This document shows positions 7,418 to 64,000 of a stretch of 64,000 bases of DNA, piece by piece (position 1 is the first letter of the stretch; the number at the start of each line of letters is the position of its first letter). Position numbers and translations under genes: made by a program. The notes under the pieces are model-generated. The model made no database searches. It worked only from the letters and a program-made list of their open reading frames with translations, and was not told the origin of the DNA. Source of the DNA: Candidatus Parcubacteria bacterium (GTDB lineage Bacteria; Patescibacteriota; Patescibacteriia; Patescibacteriales; UBA12465); NCBI GenBank assembly GCA_037076615.1, contig AP029158.1, positions 261,470 to 325,469 on the forward strand, given 5' to 3'.

Positions 7418-8617
7418 ATGAAAAGAAAATCTACTCCCCGGCGCACTATCGGCGTCGATGCTCGTTTTTATGGCCCTCTAGGAAAAGGGCTGGGGCGCTA
7501 CACTCAAGAAGTGGTTGATAACGTCATTAGAATTAATCAAGACGAACCGCTAGATTTCGTAATTTTTTTATCACCGGATAATTTTGATGAATTTGTTTGC
7601 CCCAATGAAAATGTGCGCAAAGAATTAATTAAGGCACGTTGGTATTCTTTGGCGGAACAATTTGAGGTGCCTTATAAATGGTGGCGGGCGAAAATTGACC
7701 TGATGCATTTTCCGCATTTTAATGTCCCTTTAATTAAAATGGGGGCATTTGTGGTTACTATCCATGATCTTATTTTGACGAAGTTTCCGACGGTGCGAGC
7801 TACCACCAGGCCCCCTTTTATTTATTGGCTAAAGGATAAGGCTTATCGTTTGGTCATTAGATTAGCGATTAAAAAAGCTAAACAGGTGATTACGGTTTCT
7901 GAATTTACGAAAAAAGATTTAATAGCTCAATTTAAAACGCCGCTGGAAAAAATTATTGTCACCTATGAGGGGGTGGCGAATTTAAGCAAGGGCGGAGATT
8001 CTCTTTTTGTGGCCAAGCTTGATCACCAGCGCACCTTGGAACTTTATAATATTCGCAGCCCTTACTTGTTATATGTTGGTAATGCTTATCCACATAAAAA
8101 TTTAGAAGGTTTAATTAGAGTTTTTGCTGAACTGCGAAAGGGGTATCCGGATTTACGTTTAGTGTTAGTGGGGAAAGAAGATTTTTTCTATGAGCGGGTG
8201 CGTCTTTACGCCCAGCAATTAAATTTATGGCAAAAAGAGAATCATAATACTCCGGTCGTTTTTCCTGGCTATGTCCCCGATGTTGATTTGGAGACCTTGT
8301 TCCAAGAAGCCACTCTCTATGTTTTTCCTTCTCTTTATGAAGGCTTCGGTCTGCCGCCACTTGAAGCGATGGTTTATGGCTGTCCAGTGGCGAGCTCTAA
8401 TTGTGCTAGTATGCCGGAAATATTAGGAGCGGCTGCGGTTTATTTTAACCCTGAGAATGAGAAAGAAATGCGAATGGTGGTTGGTGATCTTTTAAAAAAT
8501 AGAGATGCCAGGGAAGAGTTAAAAGTTTTAGGAAAACAGCAGGTGAAAAAATATAATTGGTGGGAATGTGCTTGTCTAACCTCTGAAATCTACAAACGCT
8601 TACTAATTAAAGGTTAA
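7418..8617 (+). CDS. Glycosyltransferase family 4 (GT-B, GT1 clan)
   Basis: FPSLYEGFGLPPLEAM signature (the E-x7-E region). I moved the start from the TTG at 7406 to the in-frame ATG at 7418, just after the upstream stop. Confidence 0.85.
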   Translation: MKRKSTPRRTIGVDARFYGPLGKGLGRYTQEVVDNVIRINQDEPLDFVIFLSPDNFDEFVCPNENVRKELIKARWYSLAEQFEVPYKWWRAKIDLMHFPHFNVPLIKMGAFVVTIHDLILTKFPTVRATTRPPFIYWLKDKAYRLVIRLAIKKAKQVITVSEFTKKDLIAQFKTPLEKIIVTYEGVANLSKGGDSLFVAKLDHQRTLELYNIRSPYLLYVGNAYPHKNLEGLIRVFAELRKGYPDLRLVLVGKEDFFYERVRLYAQQLNLWQKENHNTPVVFPGYVPDVDLETLFQEATLYVFPSLYEGFGLPPLEAMVYGCPVASSNCASMPEILGAAAVYFNPENEKEMRMVVGDLLKNRDAREELKVLGKQQVKKYNWWECACLTSEIYKRLLIKG

Positions 8618-32500: not shown

Positions 32501-32856
32501 TGGGGGGCAAGTAGATGATTGCTCGGTTCGCCGAGAGGAAAGTCCGGACTCCTTAAAGGGGCAGTGGATAACGTCCACCAGGGGTAACCCTAGGGAAAGT
32601 GCCACAGAGACAATACTAGTCCGCCCGTTGGCTTCGCCAGCCGGTGGATGAAAGGTGAAAAGAAAGAGGGTGTCGCAAGGCTACCTTTTTCGCTTAGCGG
32701 TGACGCTAAGATCGCGGTAAACCCTGCCTGGAGCAAGGACAAACTCTGTTGCTTTTTAAGTAGCAGAAGAAAAGTGGTCCGCTTGATCGGTTTGGCAACA
32801 AATCGGCTTAGATAAATAATCATCCTAGACAGAATCCGGCTTATCGCTTACCCCCA
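32501..32856 (+). ncRNA. rnpB: RNase P RNA, bacterial type A
   Basis: It carries both conserved P4 strands, GAGAGGAAAGTCCGGACTCC and GACAGAATCCGGCTTAT. The P3 hairpin is CTCGGTTCGCCGAG, and P1 pairs GGGGGGCAAG with CGCTTACCCCC. The ends are approximate, within about 10 nt. Confidence 0.85.
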
Positions 32857-32879
32857 AAATAACTTTTTTAAAACTTTTT

Positions 32880-38112: not shown

Positions 38113-38113
38113 G

Positions 38114-38197
38114 TGCCGCGAGAGGGAATCGAACCCTCATGGGATTGCTCCCACACGAGTTTGAGTCGTGCGCGTCTACCAGTTCCGCCATCACGGC
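38114..38197 (-). tRNA. tRNA-Leu (anticodon CAA), class II with a long variable arm
   Basis: The reverse complement GCCGTGATGGCGGAACTGGTAGACGCGCACGACTCAAACTCGTGTGGGAGCAATCCCATGAGGGTTCGATTCCCTCTCGCGGCA folds as a cloverleaf. The acceptor is 7 bp, the anticodon loop is CUCAAAC, and the T-loop is GGTTCGATTCC. CCA is not encoded. Confidence 0.9.
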
Positions 38198-57867: not shown

Positions 57868-59346
57868 ATGAGTGAAGAGCTGCTCGCAAATTCAGGCAGT
57901 GAACGGGAAGACCGTGTAAAAAAATTAGCCGCCTTAAAAGAATTGAACATTGCCGCTTATCCGGCTCAGGTCCATCGCGATAAAATGATCGCCGAGTTTT
58001 TGAGCAGTTTTGATAATTTAATTAAGTCTCAGGAAAAACTTATTCTGGCTGGACGTTTGCGAGCCAAAAGGGAACACGGTAATTTAGCTTTTGCCGATTT
58101 AGAGGATGTGAGCGGTCGTTTACAGTTGGTCTTTTCTAAAAAAGAATTGGGGCCGGAAAAATATAAAACTTTTTTAAAGTTAATTGATGTTGCCGATTTT
58201 ATTCAAGTGACCGGTACCGCTTTTTTGACTCATAAAGGAGAAAGCAGTTTATTGGTTAGCGACTGGACTTTATTAACTAAGTCTTTGCGGCCTATTCCTG
58301 ATTCTTGGTATGGCCTCAAGGGTGAGGAGGATCGTTTACGTAAACGTTATTTGGATTTACTGCTCAATCCCGAGAAGCGGGAGTTGTTTATCAAAAAGGC
58401 GCATTTTTGGGAAGTGACCAGAGATTTTATGAAACGTCACGGCTTTTTTGAGGTGGAGACGCCAACCCTAGAGCTAACCACCGGCGGTGCCGAAGCCAAT
58501 CCTTTTAAAACTCATCATGATGATTTTGATCTGAATGTTTATCTACGCATTTCCGTTGGCGAATTATGGCAGAAGCGTTTGATTGCTGCTGGTTATGAAA
58601 AGGTTTTTGAAGTTGGCCGGGTTTATCGCAACGAAGGTTCAAGCGCCGATCACTTGCAAGAATTTACTAATTTGGAGTTCTATTGGGCTTATGCTGATTA
58701 TGAAATGGGCATGAAGCTGGCGCAAGAATTGTACCAAGAAATTGCGCAAGAGGTTTTTGGTCGCACCGATTTTGAAACTCGAGGAATGAAGTTTGATTTA
58801 GCGGGTGAGTGGCCACATTTAGATTATTGTACGGCAGTTAAAGAGAGAACAGGGATTGATGTTTTGACTGCTTCCGAGGAAGAAATGAAGGCTAAACTAG
58901 AAGAGTTACAAGTAAAATATGATGGCGATAATCGTGAACGTTTAATTGATACGCTTTGGAAGTATTGCCGCCGCCAAATTGCCGGTCCGGTATTTTTAGT
59001 TAATCATCCAAAATTAGTTTCACCACTAGCTAAGGCTAAGGCTGATAACCCGGAGCTGACCGAACGTTTTCAAATTATTATTGCCGGCTCGGAAGTGGGT
59101 AACGGTTTTTCGGAATTAAATGATCCGATTGATCAGGCCGAACGTTTTCGTTTGCAGCAGGAGTTGATTGATCGAGGCGATAAAGAGGCAATGATGCCGG
59201 ACTGGGAGTTTGTGGAAATGTTGGAACACGGTTTGCCGCCGACTTGTGGTTTTGGTTTTGGGGAAAGGTTATTTGCTTTTATGTGTGATAAGCCGGTGCG
59301 CGAGGTGACGCTTTTCCCGCTCTTAAAGCCGAAGCAGGGGGAGTAG
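57868..59346 (+). CDS. lysS: Lysine--tRNA ligase, class II
   Basis: OB-fold N-terminus, with class II motifs FFEVETP, YRNEG and GFGFGERL. Confidence 0.95.
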   Translation: MSEELLANSGSEREDRVKKLAALKELNIAAYPAQVHRDKMIAEFLSSFDNLIKSQEKLILAGRLRAKREHGNLAFADLEDVSGRLQLVFSKKELGPEKYKTFLKLIDVADFIQVTGTAFLTHKGESSLLVSDWTLLTKSLRPIPDSWYGLKGEEDRLRKRYLDLLLNPEKRELFIKKAHFWEVTRDFMKRHGFFEVETPTLELTTGGAEANPFKTHHDDFDLNVYLRISVGELWQKRLIAAGYEKVFEVGRVYRNEGSSADHLQEFTNLEFYWAYADYEMGMKLAQELYQEIAQEVFGRTDFETRGMKFDLAGEWPHLDYCTAVKERTGIDVLTASEEEMKAKLEELQVKYDGDNRERLIDTLWKYCRRQIAGPVFLVNHPKLVSPLAKAKADNPELTERFQIIIAGSEVGNGFSELNDPIDQAERFRLQQELIDRGDKEAMMPDWEFVEMLEHGLPPTCGFGFGERLFAFMCDKPVREVTLFPLLKPKQGE

Positions 59347-59362
59347 GGAACAATAAAATAAT

Positions 59363-59433
59363 TCGGGGATCGTCTAATGGTAGGACTGCAGGTTCTGGTC
59401 CTGTATATCTGGGTTCGAATCCTAGTCCCCGAG
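59363..59433 (+). tRNA. tRNA-Gln (anticodon CUG)
   Basis: TCGGGGATCGTCTAATGGTAGGACTGCAGGTTCTGGTCCTGTATATCTGGGTTCGAATCCTAGTCCCCGAG folds as a cloverleaf. It has a U1-A72 pair, anticodon loop UUCUGGU and T-loop GGTTCGAATCC. CCA is not encoded, and it lies 17 nt after lysS. Confidence 0.88.
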
Positions 59434-59442
59434 CAAATTTAC

Positions 59443-59477
59443 AAAAATAGACTACTGATCGTAGTCTATTTTTTTTA
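59443..59477. terminator. Bidirectional rho-independent terminator after tRNA-Gln
   Basis: 9-bp stem atagactac/gtagtctat, 5-nt loop, T8 downstream and an A-run upstream. Confidence 0.7.
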
Positions 59478-59496
59478 TTATTTATTTATTCAAGAT

Positions 59497-59719
59497 TTAA
59501 TCTCCAAGCCAATCACCGTGTATCCTTAAAGTTTGCATATGTACGGCTTGGTGTTCTGCCGGAGTGCAAACATATAAGTTATACGGTTGATTGTTTTTTA
59601 TTTCCATCTTGATGGTGAACTACCTCGTCGAATCTCAGTCTTCTGCCCAAAGATAAAAATCTTATGGCCCCTCCTAACTCCCACCGCACAAAGAGAAGTG
59701 TAAAAGTTGATGTTGGCGA
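59497..59719 (-). pseudogene. HNH endonuclease remnant, split by a frameshift in an A-run
   Basis: One minus-strand frame reads ...LGRRLRFDEVVHHQDGNKKQSTV*. The adjacent frame reads (M)EIKNNQPYNLYVCTPAEHQAVHMQ...*. Removing one A from aaataaaaaac gives VVHHQDGNKNNQPYNLYVCTPAEHQAVH, the HH-N-N-H signature. No ATG start is present upstream. Confidence 0.55.
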
Positions 59720-59841
59720 CTACCGAATATAACAAACTATCTTATAATTACCGCGAAGATTAGGCCTTAAAGCTTTTTTGTGGTTTTTTGGGGTATAGCT
59801 ATCTAAAAAATTCTTAATCTTAGGTGGGTTATCTTACTATA

Positions 59842-59870
59842 TTGACAAAATGTTTCTTTTGTGATACAAT
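59842..59870 (+). promoter_or_regulatory. Strong promoter with an extended -10
   Basis: TTGACA - 17 nt - TACAAT, with a TGn extension (tgaTACAAT). Confidence 0.55.
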
Positions 59871-59877
59871 TCTCTTA

Positions 59878-59925
59878 GTTAAATATTGGAAACTTGTTAG
59901 CTAGAATCTAACGACAATATTTAAC
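59878..59925 (+). other. Structured 5'-UTR element (nested hairpin)
   Basis: A perfect 11-bp outer stem gttaaatattg/caatatttaac encloses a 5-bp inner stem gttag/ctaac with a 7-nt loop. It lies between the promoter and the ATG at 59951. Confidence 0.45.
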
Positions 59926-59950
59926 CGGCACCTTTAAAACTCAATAAAAA

Positions 59951-60949
59951 ATGAAGAAATTTTCTCTATTCCTAATCCTAACACTCATTAGCCTGTCCTC
60001 CACATTCTCTCAAAAAAATTTCAGCCAAATCTTTAATGAAACGGTTGAATTGAATGAAAATCGGTTTAAAGATGTAAACATCATCCAACCGGGAGACACC
60101 GTTTTACTGCCTGCCAGAAGTGGCATGGGAGTTGAGGCCTGGATTACTGATTGGCCGATTCAAAATAACCACGACTGCATGTGGAAGATTGCCGAAAGGT
60201 ATTGGAGCTCAGAAATTCCGACTTTCCCGATCGATACAGTGACGGTGACTCTACCCAGCCCGGCACCAGAAGTTGTCAAAGAAAAAGGGTTGCTCATCTG
60301 GGTGCTTTTAAGTCTATTAATCCTTTTCATTGCCGCTTTTGTTACAATGCTTATCACTCTTTGGAAAAAAAGAGTATACCGTAATCCCGTCATCCCTGGC
60401 GGTTTAAGTAACAACGCCGGTATTGCTGCCAACCAGATTCAGAGCGTGAGTCCAAGCGCTACACTTTCGAAGGTAGAGCGGGGAAAAATTATGGGAGAGG
60501 GGAAGAAAAAAGTGTCCGTTATGTTTAGCGACGGCTTAAAAACTATCTCCTTAAGTCCAGGATTATCAGCTTATCGAGCAACAGAAGTCAATGGCAATAT
60601 CAGTTACTACTTACAACATTGTGGTAACTTAACCGGTGTCTTCGCTGATGGTCGTTTCTCTTTGCCTGAGGGTTGGTATTTCTATCCAGATGTTAAGTCT
60701 AATCACAATGACACAACAGTCTGGGAAAGCACCGCAAATGTTTTTTCAGAAAAAAAAGAAAGTCCTGAGTCTCCTGCCTCCGTCTCCGACACTAAAGTAA
60801 ACCTTGAATCATCGGTTCCCGGAGAAAAGCCCGATAGCGACATCGTTGCTGCTATAAAGGCAATCGGGGAGCTGAAATCTCCGGTCACTAGAATGACCGC
60901 GAATGATGGTCGACTCAACATAACGGTTGAGTTTGATCAAAAGAAATAA
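59951..60949 (+). CDS. Hypothetical bitopic membrane protein (signal peptide, ~100-aa outside domain, TM, ~190-aa cytoplasmic domain)
   Basis: Signal peptide MKKFSLFLILTLISLSSTFSQ and central TM LLIWVLLSLLILFIAAFVTMLITLW. I recognise no family. By eye its codon choice differs from its neighbours, being richer in C-ending codons and in cta/ctc Leu codons. Confidence 0.65.
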   Translation: MKKFSLFLILTLISLSSTFSQKNFSQIFNETVELNENRFKDVNIIQPGDTVLLPARSGMGVEAWITDWPIQNNHDCMWKIAERYWSSEIPTFPIDTVTVTLPSPAPEVVKEKGLLIWVLLSLLILFIAAFVTMLITLWKKRVYRNPVIPGGLSNNAGIAANQIQSVSPSATLSKVERGKIMGEGKKKVSVMFSDGLKTISLSPGLSAYRATEVNGNISYYLQHCGNLTGVFADGRFSLPEGWYFYPDVKSNHNDTTVWESTANVFSEKKESPESPASVSDTKVNLESSVPGEKPDSDIVAAIKAIGELKSPVTRMTANDGRLNITVEFDQKK

Positions 60950-60987
60950 CCCATGTTTTTCCTTTCGTCCTAACATTGGTTATTAGT

Positions 60988-61022
60988 CCCATTACTCTGC
61001 GAAGAGTAATGGGGCTTTTTTT
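60988..61022 (+). terminator. Rho-independent terminator
   Basis: 11-bp stem cccattactct/agagtaatggg, loop gcga, then gcTTTTTTT. Confidence 0.7.
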
Positions 61023-61089
61023 AAATGATTGACAAAGACTGATTATATTGATTAACTGTAGTCAGTTTTTTAACAAAAAAGGGGGAATA

Positions 61090-61545
61090 ATGGAAATAAA
61101 AATTTATGAGAAAGAGCCTGTCGTTTTGAACATGGGCCATGACTGCAGTTTAAAAGAAATGATTGTGGTCGCTAATTACAATTTTTGTAATTATGACATC
61201 AAGAGGGAAAAGCTCCCACTGACAGAATTATCTGATCCGCAAAAAACCTTATTGGTTTCATTACTTTCTTTTGATCAGAGAATTGATTCTAAAGAGGTTA
61301 TTTTACAAATGAAACTTAAAGGTTTTCGTCCCGCTTCTTTAGCGGAACTAATTTATTTTGAGATGGCCTATCCTGAACTTTGCGCCGGCGTTCCCATCAT
61401 TGCTTTGGGCTCTGTTTACCGAGACTCGTTTGGAATTAACAGCGTCCCGCAATTTGTGGCTGACAAAAATGGTCGTAACCTTTTTCTTGATTTAGTTGAT
61501 GGTGATTGGGAGATTGGCGACAAATTTTTGGCCGTTGCTATTTAA
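61090..61545 (+). CDS. Hypothetical cytoplasmic protein (151 aa)
   Basis: The ATG at 61090 is preceded by a GGGGG Shine-Dalgarno 5 nt upstream. The motif block GFRPASLAELIYFEMAYPEL...PIIALGS...KFLAV recalls an uncharacterised family, but I cannot name it. Confidence 0.6.
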   Translation: MEIKIYEKEPVVLNMGHDCSLKEMIVVANYNFCNYDIKREKLPLTELSDPQKTLLVSLLSFDQRIDSKEVILQMKLKGFRPASLAELIYFEMAYPELCAGVPIIALGSVYRDSFGINSVPQFVADKNGRNLFLDLVDGDWEIGDKFLAVAI

Positions 61546-61553
61546 AATTAATT

Positions 61554-61582
61554 CCGTCTACGAAATGTAGACGGTTTTTTTT
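61554..61582 (+). terminator. Rho-independent terminator
   Basis: 8-bp stem ccgtctac/gtagacgg, 5-nt loop, then T8. Confidence 0.7.
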
Positions 61583-61633
61583 ATTAAGCCTAAGAGATAT
61601 GGTATTATATAAAATAGTTAATAATTTAATTAA

Positions 61634-62629
61634 ATGACTATGAGTATTTTAGTAAGCGGCGGAGCGGGTTATATCGGCTCGCACACCTGCGTTGAATTAC
61701 TAAACAATGGTTATTCCGTGATAATTGCTGACAATTTAGTTAATAGTAAAATTGAAGTTATTGATAGAATAAAAGAAATAACCGGCCAGGAACTGACTTT
61801 TTATAAGGTTGATGTTACCGACGAAGTGGCCGTTGAGGAAATATTTTCAAATCATAAAATTGACGGTGTTCTTCATTTTGCCGGTTTTAAAGCGGTGGGT
61901 GAATCTGTGGCCAAGCCTTTAGATTACTATTACAACAATACTCTTAGCACGATGGTTCTGGCTCGAGTTTGTCTGAAGCATGGGGTTAATAAATTTGTCT
62001 TTAGCTCGTCAGCGACGGTCTATGGCGATAACAAATCACCACTTTTAGAAACAATGGAGCTGCTCCCAACGACTAATCCTTATGGTGAAACAAAAGTAAT
62101 AAGCGAGAGAATACTGACCGATGTCGCCCTGGCTAATCCCAATTTTTCTGTGGCCTTGCTCCGTTATTTTAATCCTATTGGTGCTCATAAAAGCGGCTTA
62201 ATTGGCGAATCGCCAAGCGGCGTTCCTAATAATTTGATGCCCTACATTACTCAAGTGGCGAAGGGCCGTCTAGAAAAGTTAAAGATTTTTGGTAACGATT
62301 ATCCAACTATTGATGGCACTGGCGTTAGGGATTACATTCATGTCGTCGATTTGGCTCAGGGTCATGTCTTGGCACTTCAAAAATTAAATGCCGGCGCTCA
62401 TATTTATAACCTAGGCACCAGCCAGGGGACTTCGGTTTTAGAATTACTACAAGCTTTTGAGGAGATTAATGGCCTTAAAATACCTTATGAAATCGTTGAT
62501 AGAAGGCCGGGTGATATTGCTGAGTGTTTTGCTGATGTTGGTAAGGCCGAGCAAGAATTAGGCTGGGAATCTAAATTAAATATCAAGGATATGTGTGAGG
62601 ATGCTTGGCGGTTTGAAAATAATTTTTAA
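61634..62629 (+). CDS. galE: UDP-glucose 4-epimerase
   Basis: GGAGYIGSH, SSSATVYG and YGETK (YxxxK) motifs, with LRYFNP. Confidence 0.92.
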   Translation: MTMSILVSGGAGYIGSHTCVELLNNGYSVIIADNLVNSKIEVIDRIKEITGQELTFYKVDVTDEVAVEEIFSNHKIDGVLHFAGFKAVGESVAKPLDYYYNNTLSTMVLARVCLKHGVNKFVFSSSATVYGDNKSPLLETMELLPTTNPYGETKVISERILTDVALANPNFSVALLRYFNPIGAHKSGLIGESPSGVPNNLMPYITQVAKGRLEKLKIFGNDYPTIDGTGVRDYIHVVDLAQGHVLALQKLNAGAHIYNLGTSQGTSVLELLQAFEEINGLKIPYEIVDRRPGDIAECFADVGKAEQELGWESKLNIKDMCEDAWRFENNF

Positions 62630-62638
62630 TGGTGATCT

Positions 62639-62959
62639 ATGCCCAGAAAGGATATTACCCCATTTTCTCAAGCCGTTTACGAGGCGACGCGCTTAATCCC
62701 GCTGGGCCGTGTTTCTACTTATGGCACGATTGCTAAATTTTTAGGAAAACCGCGGGCGGCGCGAGCGGTGGGCAATGCTTTACACAATAATCCTTTGGCG
62801 CCGCAGGTGCCTTGCCATCGGGTAGTTATGAGTGGCGGCCATCTTGGTGGTTTTGCCGAAGGAATAAAGAAAAAGAAAAAGCTTTTAGAAACAGAGGGTG
62901 TTATTTGTAAGTCTGGCAGGGTAGTTAATTGGTCAGAAATATTTTTTTCCTTTAAGTAG
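62639..62959 (+). CDS. ogt: Methylated-DNA--protein-cysteine methyltransferase (DNA-binding/active-site domain only)
   Basis: IPLGRVSTYG...AARAVGNAL..NP and the active site VPCHRVV, across 106 aa. Confidence 0.85.
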   Translation: MPRKDITPFSQAVYEATRLIPLGRVSTYGTIAKFLGKPRAARAVGNALHNNPLAPQVPCHRVVMSGGHLGGFAEGIKKKKKLLETEGVICKSGRVVNWSEIFFSFK

Positions 62960-63019: not shown

Positions 63020-64000
63020 ATGTTTGCTTTTTTAAAGAAAAATAAAATAAGAAAAAAGGTTTTGCTGGTTTTTTTATTCACAATCCTTGTTTTAGTGGGG
63101 TCTTTTTTTGTTTATAAATATACTAAAGCTAGTTACGCAGTAATATCTTTTACCGAAGTCGGGCCTCATACCTGGGTTGTCCCCGATGGAGCAATTAGTG
63201 CCGATATTTTAATAGTGGCTGGCGGCGGTGGCGGCGGTTATAGGCATGGAGCTGGTGGCGGCGCTGGTGGCCTTATTTTTAAAGAAAATTATTCCTTAAC
63301 ACCAGGGAGCTCGATCACTATCAATGTTGGCGCGGGAGGAAAAGGGGCAACTGGTTCTAGTGCTGCTACCAGATCAACAAATGGAGGTGACTCTTCTTTT
63401 GATTCTTTCATTGCTATTGGCGGTGGTGCCGCTGGTCAATGGGATGCCTACCGGAGCGGTTCGAGTGGTGGATCCGGTGGAGGCTCAGCTTCTAACTATA
63501 AAGCTTCGGGAACTGCTGGGCAAGGTAATTCTGGCGGTGGTCTTTTATCTAATTATAAACATGGCGGTGGCGGTGGTGCCGGGGAGGCAGGAACCGATGG
63601 AACAGCTGATTCTAATGGCATGGGCGGCAAGGGTTTATATTATGGAAATATTTTTGGTGATGATTATGGTGAAAATGGTTGGTTCGCCGGTGGTGGCGGC
63701 GGCGGCAGTCATAACCCCGCACCTCTAAATAGAGGCTTAGGAGGATTAGGTGGTGGTGGTAATGGTGGAACGCCAGGTACTTTCCAAGATGGTGATAATG
63801 GTTTATCTAACACCGGTGGTGGTGGGGGTGGGGCATCTTCTATTACTGGTGGATCAAATAAGGGGGGTAATGGCGGTTCAGGGGTGGTTATAATAAGATA
63901 TAAACTAAAACCTGGCACAGCTAAAGGTATTCAGACTTATAGCGGTCTGGTTGGACACTTTAAAATGGGCGCTGATAGCTATATTGAAGGTACAAATAAT
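63020..64000 (+). CDS. Glycine-rich-domain surface protein (partial; runs off the right edge); absent from the ORF track
   Basis: The ATG at 63020 opens a frame that stays open to 64000 (327 codons): MFAFLKKNKIRKKVLLVFLFTILVLVGSFF (TM) ...HTWVVPDGAISADILIVAGGGGGG...ITINVGAGGKG...GGDSSF...AIGGGAAG...GGSGVVIIRY, then GLVGHFKMG (a LamG-like start). Confidence 0.75.
   Translation, partial: MFAFLKKNKIRKKVLLVFLFTILVLVGSFFVYKYTKASYAVISFTEVGPHTWVVPDGAISADILIVAGGGGGGYRHGAGGGAGGLIFKENYSLTPGSSITINVGAGGKGATGSSAATRSTNGGDSSFDSFIAIGGGAAGQWDAYRSGSSGGSGGGSASNYKASGTAGQGNSGGGLLSNYKHGGGGGAGEAGTDGTADSNGMGGKGLYYGNIFGDDYGENGWFAGGGGGGSHNPAPLNRGLGGLGGGGNGGTPGTFQDGDNGLSNTGGGGGGASSITGGSNKGGNGGSGVVIIRYKLKPGTAKGIQTYSGLVGHFKMGADSYIEGTNN

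Follow-up and report, generated by a model that had tools for sequence, protein, structure and literature searches.

A probable gene-turnover site 3' of tRNA-Gln in a Candidatus Parcubacteria genome, with an orphan membrane-protein cassette and a conserved member of a retroelement variable-protein family

The DNA analyzed here (hereafter called the window) is a 64-kb stretch of the 717-kb metagenome-assembled genome (MAG) of a Candidatus Parcubacteria bacterium (Patescibacteria), and contains 51 genes. We focused on the region of 59.4-61.6 kb, immediately downstream of a tRNA-Gln gene, in which the relics of two genes are followed by two complete open reading frames (ORFs), referred to as ORF A (locus tag JST_000304) and ORF B (locus tag JST_000305). 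The corresponding loci of relatives were collected by exact-protein look-ups and compared with the window by blastn and tblastn. Judged by lysS, the closest named relatives are Candidatus Falkowbacteria MAGs (74-76% identity). Loci L013-L020 belong to the same species as the window (99.6-100% identical), and three related lineages are represented by L004-L006, L007-L009 and L010, with ORF B identities of 83%, 81% and 67%, respectively; the lysS fragment of L007 shares 97% protein identity with the window (tblastx). In addition, a lysS scan of species-representative genomes provided 80 loci, the 61 closest of which (L021-L081) were used for the count of contig ends.

The left flank is a conserved block composed of a 487-aa membrane protein gene, greA, lysS and tRNA-Gln, which is kept in approximately 58 of the 80 related species. 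It ends with lysS (57868..59346, plus strand; Pfam tRNA-synt_2, E 6.9e-68), tRNA-Gln (CTG) (59363..59434, plus strand; ARAGORN, Rfam 55.3 bits) and the terminator hairpin of the lysS/tRNA-Gln unit (59443..59473, plus strand; a 13-bp stem followed by a T-run), all of which lie at or near the positions proposed in a first-pass annotation of this DNA. The match between the window and L007, L013 and L004 is interrupted at 59430-59437, which are the last bases of the tRNA, and the same three loci retain the terminator to the right of each insertion. Variable DNA begins within 10 bp of the tRNA-Gln end (59434). In the window itself tRNA-Gln directly abuts the terminator, indicating that the insertion site is unoccupied. 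A copy of the tRNA-Gln 3' end, including its downstream flank, was found at positions 1427-1470 of L007 (core 13/15 matches), directly after an AbiJ-like gene; such a copy is the signature of site-specific insertion at the tRNA, and it was the only tRNA-end-like copy counted as convincing. The direct repeat of the tRNA-Gln 3' end that the first-pass annotation had proposed to look for near 61.6 kb does not occur anywhere in the window, even with up to 5 mismatches in 23 nt allowed, and neither a recombinase nor an integrase was present among the ORFs of 59.4-61.6 kb or among the called genes of L004, L007, L013 and L101.

The window, L004, L007, L009 and L013 were found to share the same borders, the terminator and the HNH gene on one side and ORF B on the other, with different cargo in between. 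At the tRNA site, L007 carries about 3 kb of extra DNA with an AbiJ-like gene, a PNPOx gene and small ORFs, and its further cargo encodes a MazG-like protein, an Nhi-like helicase and a deaminase. L004 has NurA, HerA and NUDIX genes at the tRNA site, and a DpnII-type restriction-modification (R-M) system is also among its cargo. In L013/L101, type III R-M genes lie at the tRNA site on an island that exceeds 6.9 kb (the L013 contig ends before any tRNA); this island is present or absent within a single species, the strain that carries it being otherwise 99.6% identical to the window. When the cargo of the relatives was screened with PADLOC, matches were obtained for AbiJ (E 1.7e-22), an Nhi/AbiO-like helicase (E 5e-15), DpnII-type methyltransferases (E ~1e-100) with a restriction enzyme (E 5.5e-89), and type III Mod (E 1.7e-122) and Res (E 1e-23). 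With respect to the earlier suggestion of a possible defence cassette, known defence genes occupy the same site in close relatives, and neither of the two proteins of the window matches a PADLOC model. A 78-aa ORF with an HNH-like motif (AHHKKPVALGG...N...H..IH) was also observed at L013 6038-6274 (equivalent to L101 6657-6893), where it closes the type III R-M island on the right, just ahead of the junction with window-like sequence.

The variability at this position extends to more distant species. Contig ends fall within 700 bp downstream of lysS in 22 of the 61 closest loci, versus 2 of the 61 for the upstream side (binomial p = 3.6e-5), and the tRNA-Gln end is thus a systematic assembly break point in related MAGs. 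Many contigs stop exactly at the last base of tRNA-Gln, e.g., L021, L023, L043, L053, L066 and L067. Turnover at tRNA-Gln is probably one reason why assemblies break there. In 31 species, the DNA downstream of tRNA-Gln contains 124 ORFs belonging to 90 Pfam families, among them R-M, Fic and NUDIX genes together with ordinary metabolic genes. In none of the 80 related-species loci was ORF A, ORF B, galE, the alkyltransferase-like (ATL) gene or the HNH gene found within 10 kb of lysS. The ackA gene forms the right flank in L004 and lies 1.4-6.8 kb downstream of tRNA-Gln in the distant loci L028, L054 and L065, a placement which hints that the ancestral interval was short and that ackA is its possible ancestral right border.

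Between the terminator and ORF A, two gene relics were identified. The first, on the minus strand (59497..59650), had been described as a decayed HNH endonuclease and is a genuine relic of an HNH_3 endonuclease gene (tblastn, PF13392 and PHROG HNH families). It corresponds to residues 80-130 of intact homologues of 130-149 aa, i.e., to the last 51 codons plus the stop codon, which are read in two frames with one frameshift; the N-terminal 79 codons have been deleted, and the remainder shows 64-81% identity to the intact L004 (130 aa) and L007 (149 aa) proteins in tblastn. After repair, the peptide matches PF13392 (HNH_3) with E 4e-7 and 30 bits (cut-off 24.8), and phrog_7545 with E 2e-9. Being both truncated and frameshifted, it is predicted to be non-functional. 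The intact HNH_3 proteins of L004 (4056-4448, minus strand) and L007 (3403-3852, minus strand) start with a hydrophobic, transmembrane-like N-terminus (MTILETLTLIAFICFLCEFLSF), which is odd for a homing-type nuclease.

The second relic, which escaped the first-pass annotation, is a dCMP/dCTP-deaminase-like remnant of 113 bp on the plus strand (59652..59764), recognized by blastn and tblastn against L007 6013-6498 and the L009 pseudogene. This remnant joins about 20 codons from the start of the gene to its final 15 codons with the stop codon (59761-63). The parent gene, encoding a 161-aa deaminase-like protein, is intact in L007 (6013-6498) and a pseudogene in L009, and the same stub as in the window is found in L004 (approximately 7835-7935). 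In L007 it belongs to a cassette coding for a MazG-like protein, a 528-aa helicase (Nhi/AbiO, E 5e-15) and the 161-aa deaminase, which weakly matches the dCTPase model (E 2.5e-9). This cassette is a candidate defence system; the match of the deaminase spans a short motif only. Since the deaminase relic lies between the HNH relic and ORF A, these features must derive from separate events.

ORF A is part of a self-contained cassette (59765..61026, plus strand) of 1,262 bp, seen as an insertion in comparison with L007, L008 and L009. In L007, the sequence corresponding to 59719-59764 of the window is directly joined to that from 61027 onward, and in L007-L009 the ORF B promoter comes directly after the stop codon of the deaminase gene; therefore, positions 59765-61026 of the window represent an insertion that carries ORF A. 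The cassette begins with a promoter (59842..59870, plus strand; TTGACA, a spacer of 17, and TACAAT preceded by the TG of an extended -10 element) that matches 11 of 12 consensus positions, in line with the near-consensus extended -10 promoter noted previously, and that is retained in the L001, L002, L003 and L011 loci. The structured untranslated region postulated downstream of it was borne out as well: a leader hairpin (59878..59925, plus strand) has a minimum free energy of -12.9 kcal/mol and a z-score of -2.99, with 1 of 200 shuffled sequences reaching an equal value. Its 17 pairs, two of them compensatory, hold across four sequences, including distant homologous loci, and an invariant leader segment (TTAGTTAAATATTGGA) is common to the window and the distant ORF A loci. 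No Rfam family matches the leader, the only hit in 59300-61700 at E <=1 being the tRNA.

The protein encoded by ORF A (59951..60949, plus strand; 332 aa) is, as anticipated, a membrane protein. In its predicted topology, a signal-peptide-like N-terminus and an outer domain of about 90 aa are followed by one strong transmembrane segment (residues ~113-137) with an adjoining KKR, and then by a conserved cytoplasmic part of approximately 195 aa that is rich in beta strands. This architecture suggests a type I membrane protein of the cell envelope that might couple a small outer domain to a larger cytoplasmic one. The cassette closes with its own terminator (60985..61016, plus strand), a 14-bp stem followed by a T-run, which shows compensatory changes in the distant loci. 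With the corresponding stem-loop behind ORF B (61554..61574), it confirms the private terminators that had been assigned to both genes. The family of ORF A is very small, comprising nine clusters among 5.8 billion proteins, and no match was obtained in Pfam, NCBIfam, PHROGs, PADLOC or PDB. The AlphaFold2 (AF2) model of ORF A is poor (pLDDT 52.5), and the fold search (TM-score <=0.15) was uninformative. A LysM-like reading of the outer domain (GDTV..P, HDCMWKIAERY) was considered and dropped, as it has no Pfam support even at E <=1.

Homologues of ORF A, which are about 50% identical, occur in a different lineage, in several species of which the gene is flanked by gyrB and tpiA; ORF B does not occur in the vicinity. 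(The gyrB gene of this lineage, at 4399-7725 in L001 and 4414-7740 in L002, contains an intein, PF14890 Intein_splicing.) The window and these distant loci are homologous from the -35 element (59842) as far as the T-run of the terminator (~61021) and no further; it therefore appears that the whole transcription unit has moved. ORF A was found in all eight same-species contigs that reach far enough, and it is absent from the loci of the nearest relatives (L004-L010). The expectation that the islet would be missing from relatives thus holds for ORF A with respect to the nearest ones, but not for ORF B, which is found in every close relative. Between the two lineages ORF A is 48% identical, compared with 42% for enolase. 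Because of this excess, its deviant codon usage (see below) and its absence from the nearest relatives, ORF A was most likely acquired laterally; the direction of the transfer is one that we infer. The dN/dS values of 0.16-0.17 among the homologues indicate purifying selection.

Its location alone makes a defence role for ORF A possible, and it could be asked whether the gene is a new single-gene defence or phage-exclusion protein, acting as a membrane sensor or blocker with or without ORF B. Such a role would be consistent with the R-M, Abi or helicase-deaminase systems that fill the slot in close relatives, with the apparent lateral acquisition, and with a membrane topology combined with a regulated-looking leader of its own. 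However, ORF A has no PADLOC or PHROG match, its stable position between gyrB and tpiA elsewhere and the purifying selection acting on it resemble those of a housekeeping envelope gene, and in other species the slot also holds non-defence genes. Moreover, no relatives of ORF A were found in viral contigs (the phage/plasmid search having been run with an ORF B family member). We therefore regard this explanation as unlikely. A broader version is just as speculative, namely that the single gene ORF A represents a new type of membrane-anchored module, serving in exclusion, defence or interaction with a host, that moves among distant Patescibacteria as a full cassette under the control of its conserved and previously undescribed leader hairpin, the tRNA-Gln flank being a lineage-wide hot spot for such cargo.

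Downstream of the ORF A cassette lies ORF B with its own signals. The promoter region (61027..61089, plus strand) was assigned from the sequence and includes TTGACA (61029-61034) and TGaTTAACT (~61049-61057). A Shine-Dalgarno motif (GGGGG; 61081..61085, plus strand), AAGGGGGA, precedes the start codon and reads AAGGAGGA (GGAGG) in three relatives (L004, L007 and L010). It had been described as the only strong one in the window, and in fact no well-placed motif of this kind was found for any of the other 50 genes. The start regions of the other genes are AT-rich (TAATAAT-like), and, judging from the 51 start regions, the genome is essentially free of Shine-Dalgarno motifs. ORF B itself (61090..61545, plus strand) encodes a cytoplasmic protein of 151 aa whose close homologues are 67-83% identical, and its terminator (61554..61574, plus strand) is kept in relatives. 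The entire unit of promoter, Shine-Dalgarno motif, gene and terminator is kept in all close relatives, whatever the cargo upstream. As ORF B is kept in all close relatives and its codon usage is typical, it is a resident of the lineage rather than recent cargo. Its dN/dS of 0.12-0.15 points to purifying selection. ORF A and ORF B, for which a test of co-occurrence in other genomes had been suggested, were never found together outside this species.

In contrast to ORF A, the AF2 model of ORF B is confident (pLDDT 91.9, pTM 0.87). A match to OspC3 in a sequence search of PDB with the ORF B profile (E 0.038) was taken as chance. The first-pass annotation had recognized no family for either protein; it is true that neither belongs to a named one, but ORF B falls into a large unnamed family, to which a HMMER search of 1.84 billion representative proteins assigned 2,281 clusters with a cut-off of E <=1e-3 and 489 with a cut-off of E <=1e-10. 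No convincing Pfam domain was seen in any of the 64 family members that were aligned. By using a degenerate DNA motif for RPATL...FPIVALG, 46 metagenomic loci of the family were collected. Among 90 ORFs neighboring the family genes, the commonest Pfam domains are RVT_1 (6) and bAvd (3), and the adjacent reverse transcriptases (RTs) possess the YADD and LGNLTSQ motifs. At eight family loci, the last 135-140 bp of the gene are repeated 350-1,000 bp downstream, as the variable region (VR) and template repeat (TR) of a diversity-generating retroelement (DGR). The VR/TR mismatches that fall at TR adenines amount to 19/20, 20/20, 14/16, 3/3, 8/8, 25/27, 15/17 and 25/25 at these loci, and such adenine mismatches are the hallmark of DGRs. 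ORF B is connected to these genes directly: its profile matches P0022 (E 9e-24), whose gene (L138) has a VR/TR pair with 8/8 mismatches at TR adenines. The ORF B family thus consists of DGR variable proteins, and ORF B is a non-diversifying member of it.

Patescibacteria have a DGR clade of their own (clade 2), the targets of which lack recognizable domains and probably adopt novel C-type-lectin folds (Roux et al. 2021; PMC8144416), and the ORF B family fits this Patescibacteria-specific clade. Loci L102-L147, in particular L102, L104, L107, L138, L141, L144 and L147, contain complete small DGR cassettes (target, TR, Avd and RT) on Patescibacteria-like metagenomic contigs, and L144 has two family members in tandem. 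In L009 (1-444), an ORF of 147 aa lies upstream of the deaminase pseudogene; it ends in ...GTIYRDSSGGLGVRYLFWYDSKWRQG...AAIVR and by eye looks similar to the C-terminal half of ORF B family proteins, and the family hidden Markov model did not detect it at E <=1e-3. An origin from phages or plasmids was also considered and rejected: a consensus-like family member gave no tblastn matches in phages or plasmids, and neither ORF A, ORF B nor that family member has relatives in viral contigs.

Given its family, ORF B might be the active, remote target of a DGR located elsewhere in the 717-kb genome. Remote targets are known and are missed by contig-based surveys (PMC8144416), and besides the family membership, the hairpin after the stop codon would be in keeping with such a target. 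Against this, the VR-equivalent part of ORF B (codons 105-151) is conserved as much as or more than the rest of the gene, with pN/pS of 0.13-0.21 versus 0.19-0.30 across four lineages. In addition, neither a TR nor an RT is present in the 64-kb window, where the 3' end of ORF B is unrepeated; no RT or Avd gene lies near ORF B there, and the ORF B loci of the relatives have no RT. An active remote target is therefore improbable in our view. ORF B is probably a soluble binding protein of fixed specificity, a role proposed on the basis of its family and conservation.

With regard to composition, the synonymous codon usage of ORF A is the most deviant in the window (chi2/df 2.59, rank 1/51; the next gene, 1.89), and its GC skew at third codon positions (-0.16, versus a plus-strand mean of +0.11) is typical of minus-strand genes. 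Codon usage had been thought to deviate in both genes; that of ORF B is in fact typical (rank 38/51). The plain GC content of the stretch (0.36-0.45) is the same as that of the flanks. In the region, promoter-like sites are not more frequent than by chance (6 versus 6.7 expected), and terminator-like sites are about twice as frequent (7 versus 2.9 expected). The flank-like GC content, the purifying selection on both genes and the presence of ORF A in all same-species contigs that reach it would suit the view that nothing here is foreign, both genes being lineage-specific core genes and the islet poorly conserved intergenic DNA. This is very unlikely in view of the precise boundaries of the ORF A cassette relative to L007-L009, the two gene relics, the presence or absence of the type III R-M island within a single species, the outlying codon usage of ORF A, and the lack of either gene near lysS in all 80 related species.

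According to the first-pass annotation, by contrast, the HNH gene, ORF A and ORF B would be the remains of one decayed mobile element at tRNA-Gln, the two ORFs being its accessory cargo for defence or immunity. Adjacency to a tRNA, a nuclease relic and autonomous expression signals had led to this proposal, and the defence cargo at the same site in relatives is compatible with it. Nevertheless, relatives without ORF A possess the HNH gene and ORF B, another lineage has ORF A on its own, the deaminase relic separates the HNH relic from ORF A, ORF B has typical codon usage, and the window has neither a tRNA-end repeat nor an integrase. A single element is thus highly improbable. What holds of that proposal is that the locus beside the tRNA is variable and accessory; its three elements do not form one remnant or cassette.

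The explanation that we prefer, with a probability of roughly three in four, is that a hot spot of gene turnover lies 3' of tRNA-Gln and that the stretch shows one stage of it, in which five items with separate histories, rather than one element, lie side by side. The first item would be the empty insertion site at the junction of the tRNA 3' end and the terminator, which is filled in relatives by AbiJ-like or type III R-M cargo. The HNH_3 and deaminase stubs, as the second and third items, would be leftovers of deletions. The fourth, the self-contained ORF A unit, would have entered the locus downstream of the deaminase stop codon and upstream of the ORF B promoter, and the fifth, ORF B, would be a resident, soluble ligand-binding protein held constant by purifying selection. 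At most, the HNH nuclease may have driven the exchange at the site. Within this explanation, the anatomy of the locus, the borders of the insertions, the two relics, the differences from one relative to another and the assignment of the ORF B family to DGRs come directly from the comparisons above.

Several points weigh against the turnover hot spot as described. Neither a recombinase nor a transposase was seen in the window or in the visible cargo of the relatives. More degenerate sequences that resemble the tRNA end, located where the insertions of L007 and L013 end on the right, did not reach significance by themselves (shuffle p 0.38 and 0.95, respectively) and were rejected. The contig breaks could reflect a repeat instead of strain variation, and, as metagenomic assemblies are incomplete, ORF A could sit elsewhere in the nearest relatives. 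Its higher conservation than enolase might result from strong constraint and not from transfer. The metabolic genes found downstream in distant species make the label "defence island" too narrow. As for ORF B, its best Foldseek matches (PDB and BFVD) are C-type lectin domains, and they are weak (TM-score 0.35-0.43, E 0.05-0.7); furthermore, a distant DGR may, although improbably, act on it, the search for TR and RT having spanned 64 kb of the 717-kb genome.

The right flank is variable, too. ORF B is followed by galE (61634..62629, plus strand; Pfam) and then by the ATL gene (DNA_binding_1; 62639..62959, plus strand; Pfam), both of which are variably present: L007 has no galE, L004 keeps just a 5' stub of it, and the ATL gene is missing in L004. 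The galE stub (MNILVSGGAG...) is located at 8560-8600 of L004, after the ORF B terminator, and therefore galE has been deleted in the L004 lineage. At approximately 63020-64000, the gene of a large surface-type protein (Gly_rich_2 / Laminin_G_3) begins and runs off the end of the window; here the GC content rises to 0.47-0.51, and the protein, 964 aa long in L016, has a length of 514-964 aa and varying domains among relatives. Elsewhere in the window, bacterial class A RNase P RNA (32503-32859, plus strand; 211 bits) and tRNA-Leu(CAA) (38113-38197, minus strand) were identified; besides RNase P RNA and tRNAs, no Rfam family reached its threshold in the window.

In Enterobacteria and Pseudomonas, tRNA-adjacent islands and defence hot spots have conserved flanks and interchangeable cargo. 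The locus described here resembles them in that insertion takes place exactly at the 3' end of the tRNA, the cargo differs among close relatives and strains and contains much R-M and Abi, a decayed copy of the tRNA end lies at a cargo boundary in one relative, and assembly breaks cluster at the site. It differs in that no integrase or recombinase was seen, that the site is empty and without a repeat in the window, and that a second turnover point exists 300 bp further in, between the HNH relic and ORF B. The host is also different, being a member of the Patescibacteria with a genome of about 0.7 Mb, and the cargo of distant species is often metabolic. Similarly, the HNH_3 relic shares with free-standing homing-type endonucleases (PF13392) the motif HH..DGN..NN...NL......EH...H and, in its intact form, a gene of 130-149 aa that stands alone on the opposite strand of a variable locus, whereas the copy in the window is truncated and frameshifted and the N-terminus of the intact relatives is unusually hydrophobic. 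The parent cassette of the deaminase relic in L007 matches the Nhi/AbiO and, weakly, the dCTPase models of defence genes, unlike the window, which keeps only a non-coding stub.

Compared with DGR variable proteins such as Mtd and TvpA and those of DGR clade 2 (PMC8144416), ORF B shows full-length homology to VR-bearing proteins, in which the VR is the C-terminal ~140 bp and lies by RT and Avd genes. Like the DGR targets of the candidate phyla radiation, ORF B lacks a signal peptide and a recognizable domain, and its best fold matches, although weak, are to C-type lectins. On the other hand, TR, RT and Avd are all absent from the window, the part of ORF B equivalent to the VR is under purifying selection in four lineages, and the gene is monocistronic, with its own promoter, strong Shine-Dalgarno motif and terminator.

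Patescibacteria have tiny genomes and are mostly uncultured, and the ways in which they acquire and discard accessory genes are poorly understood. Although the novelty is modest, since a known kind of locus is described in an understudied phylum and current concepts are unchanged, the 3' flank of tRNA-Gln acts as a common site of turnover in dozens of species and is therefore a place in which to seek defence and host-interaction genes. ORF A is a well-defined orphan with a conserved leader. Moreover, a large unnamed family of approximately 2,300 clusters has been assigned to DGR variable proteins, which is new in this analysis. At least one clade of this family has been kept without the retroelement, under purifying selection, and it thus provides a small case of a hypervariable binding protein that has turned into a fixed one.

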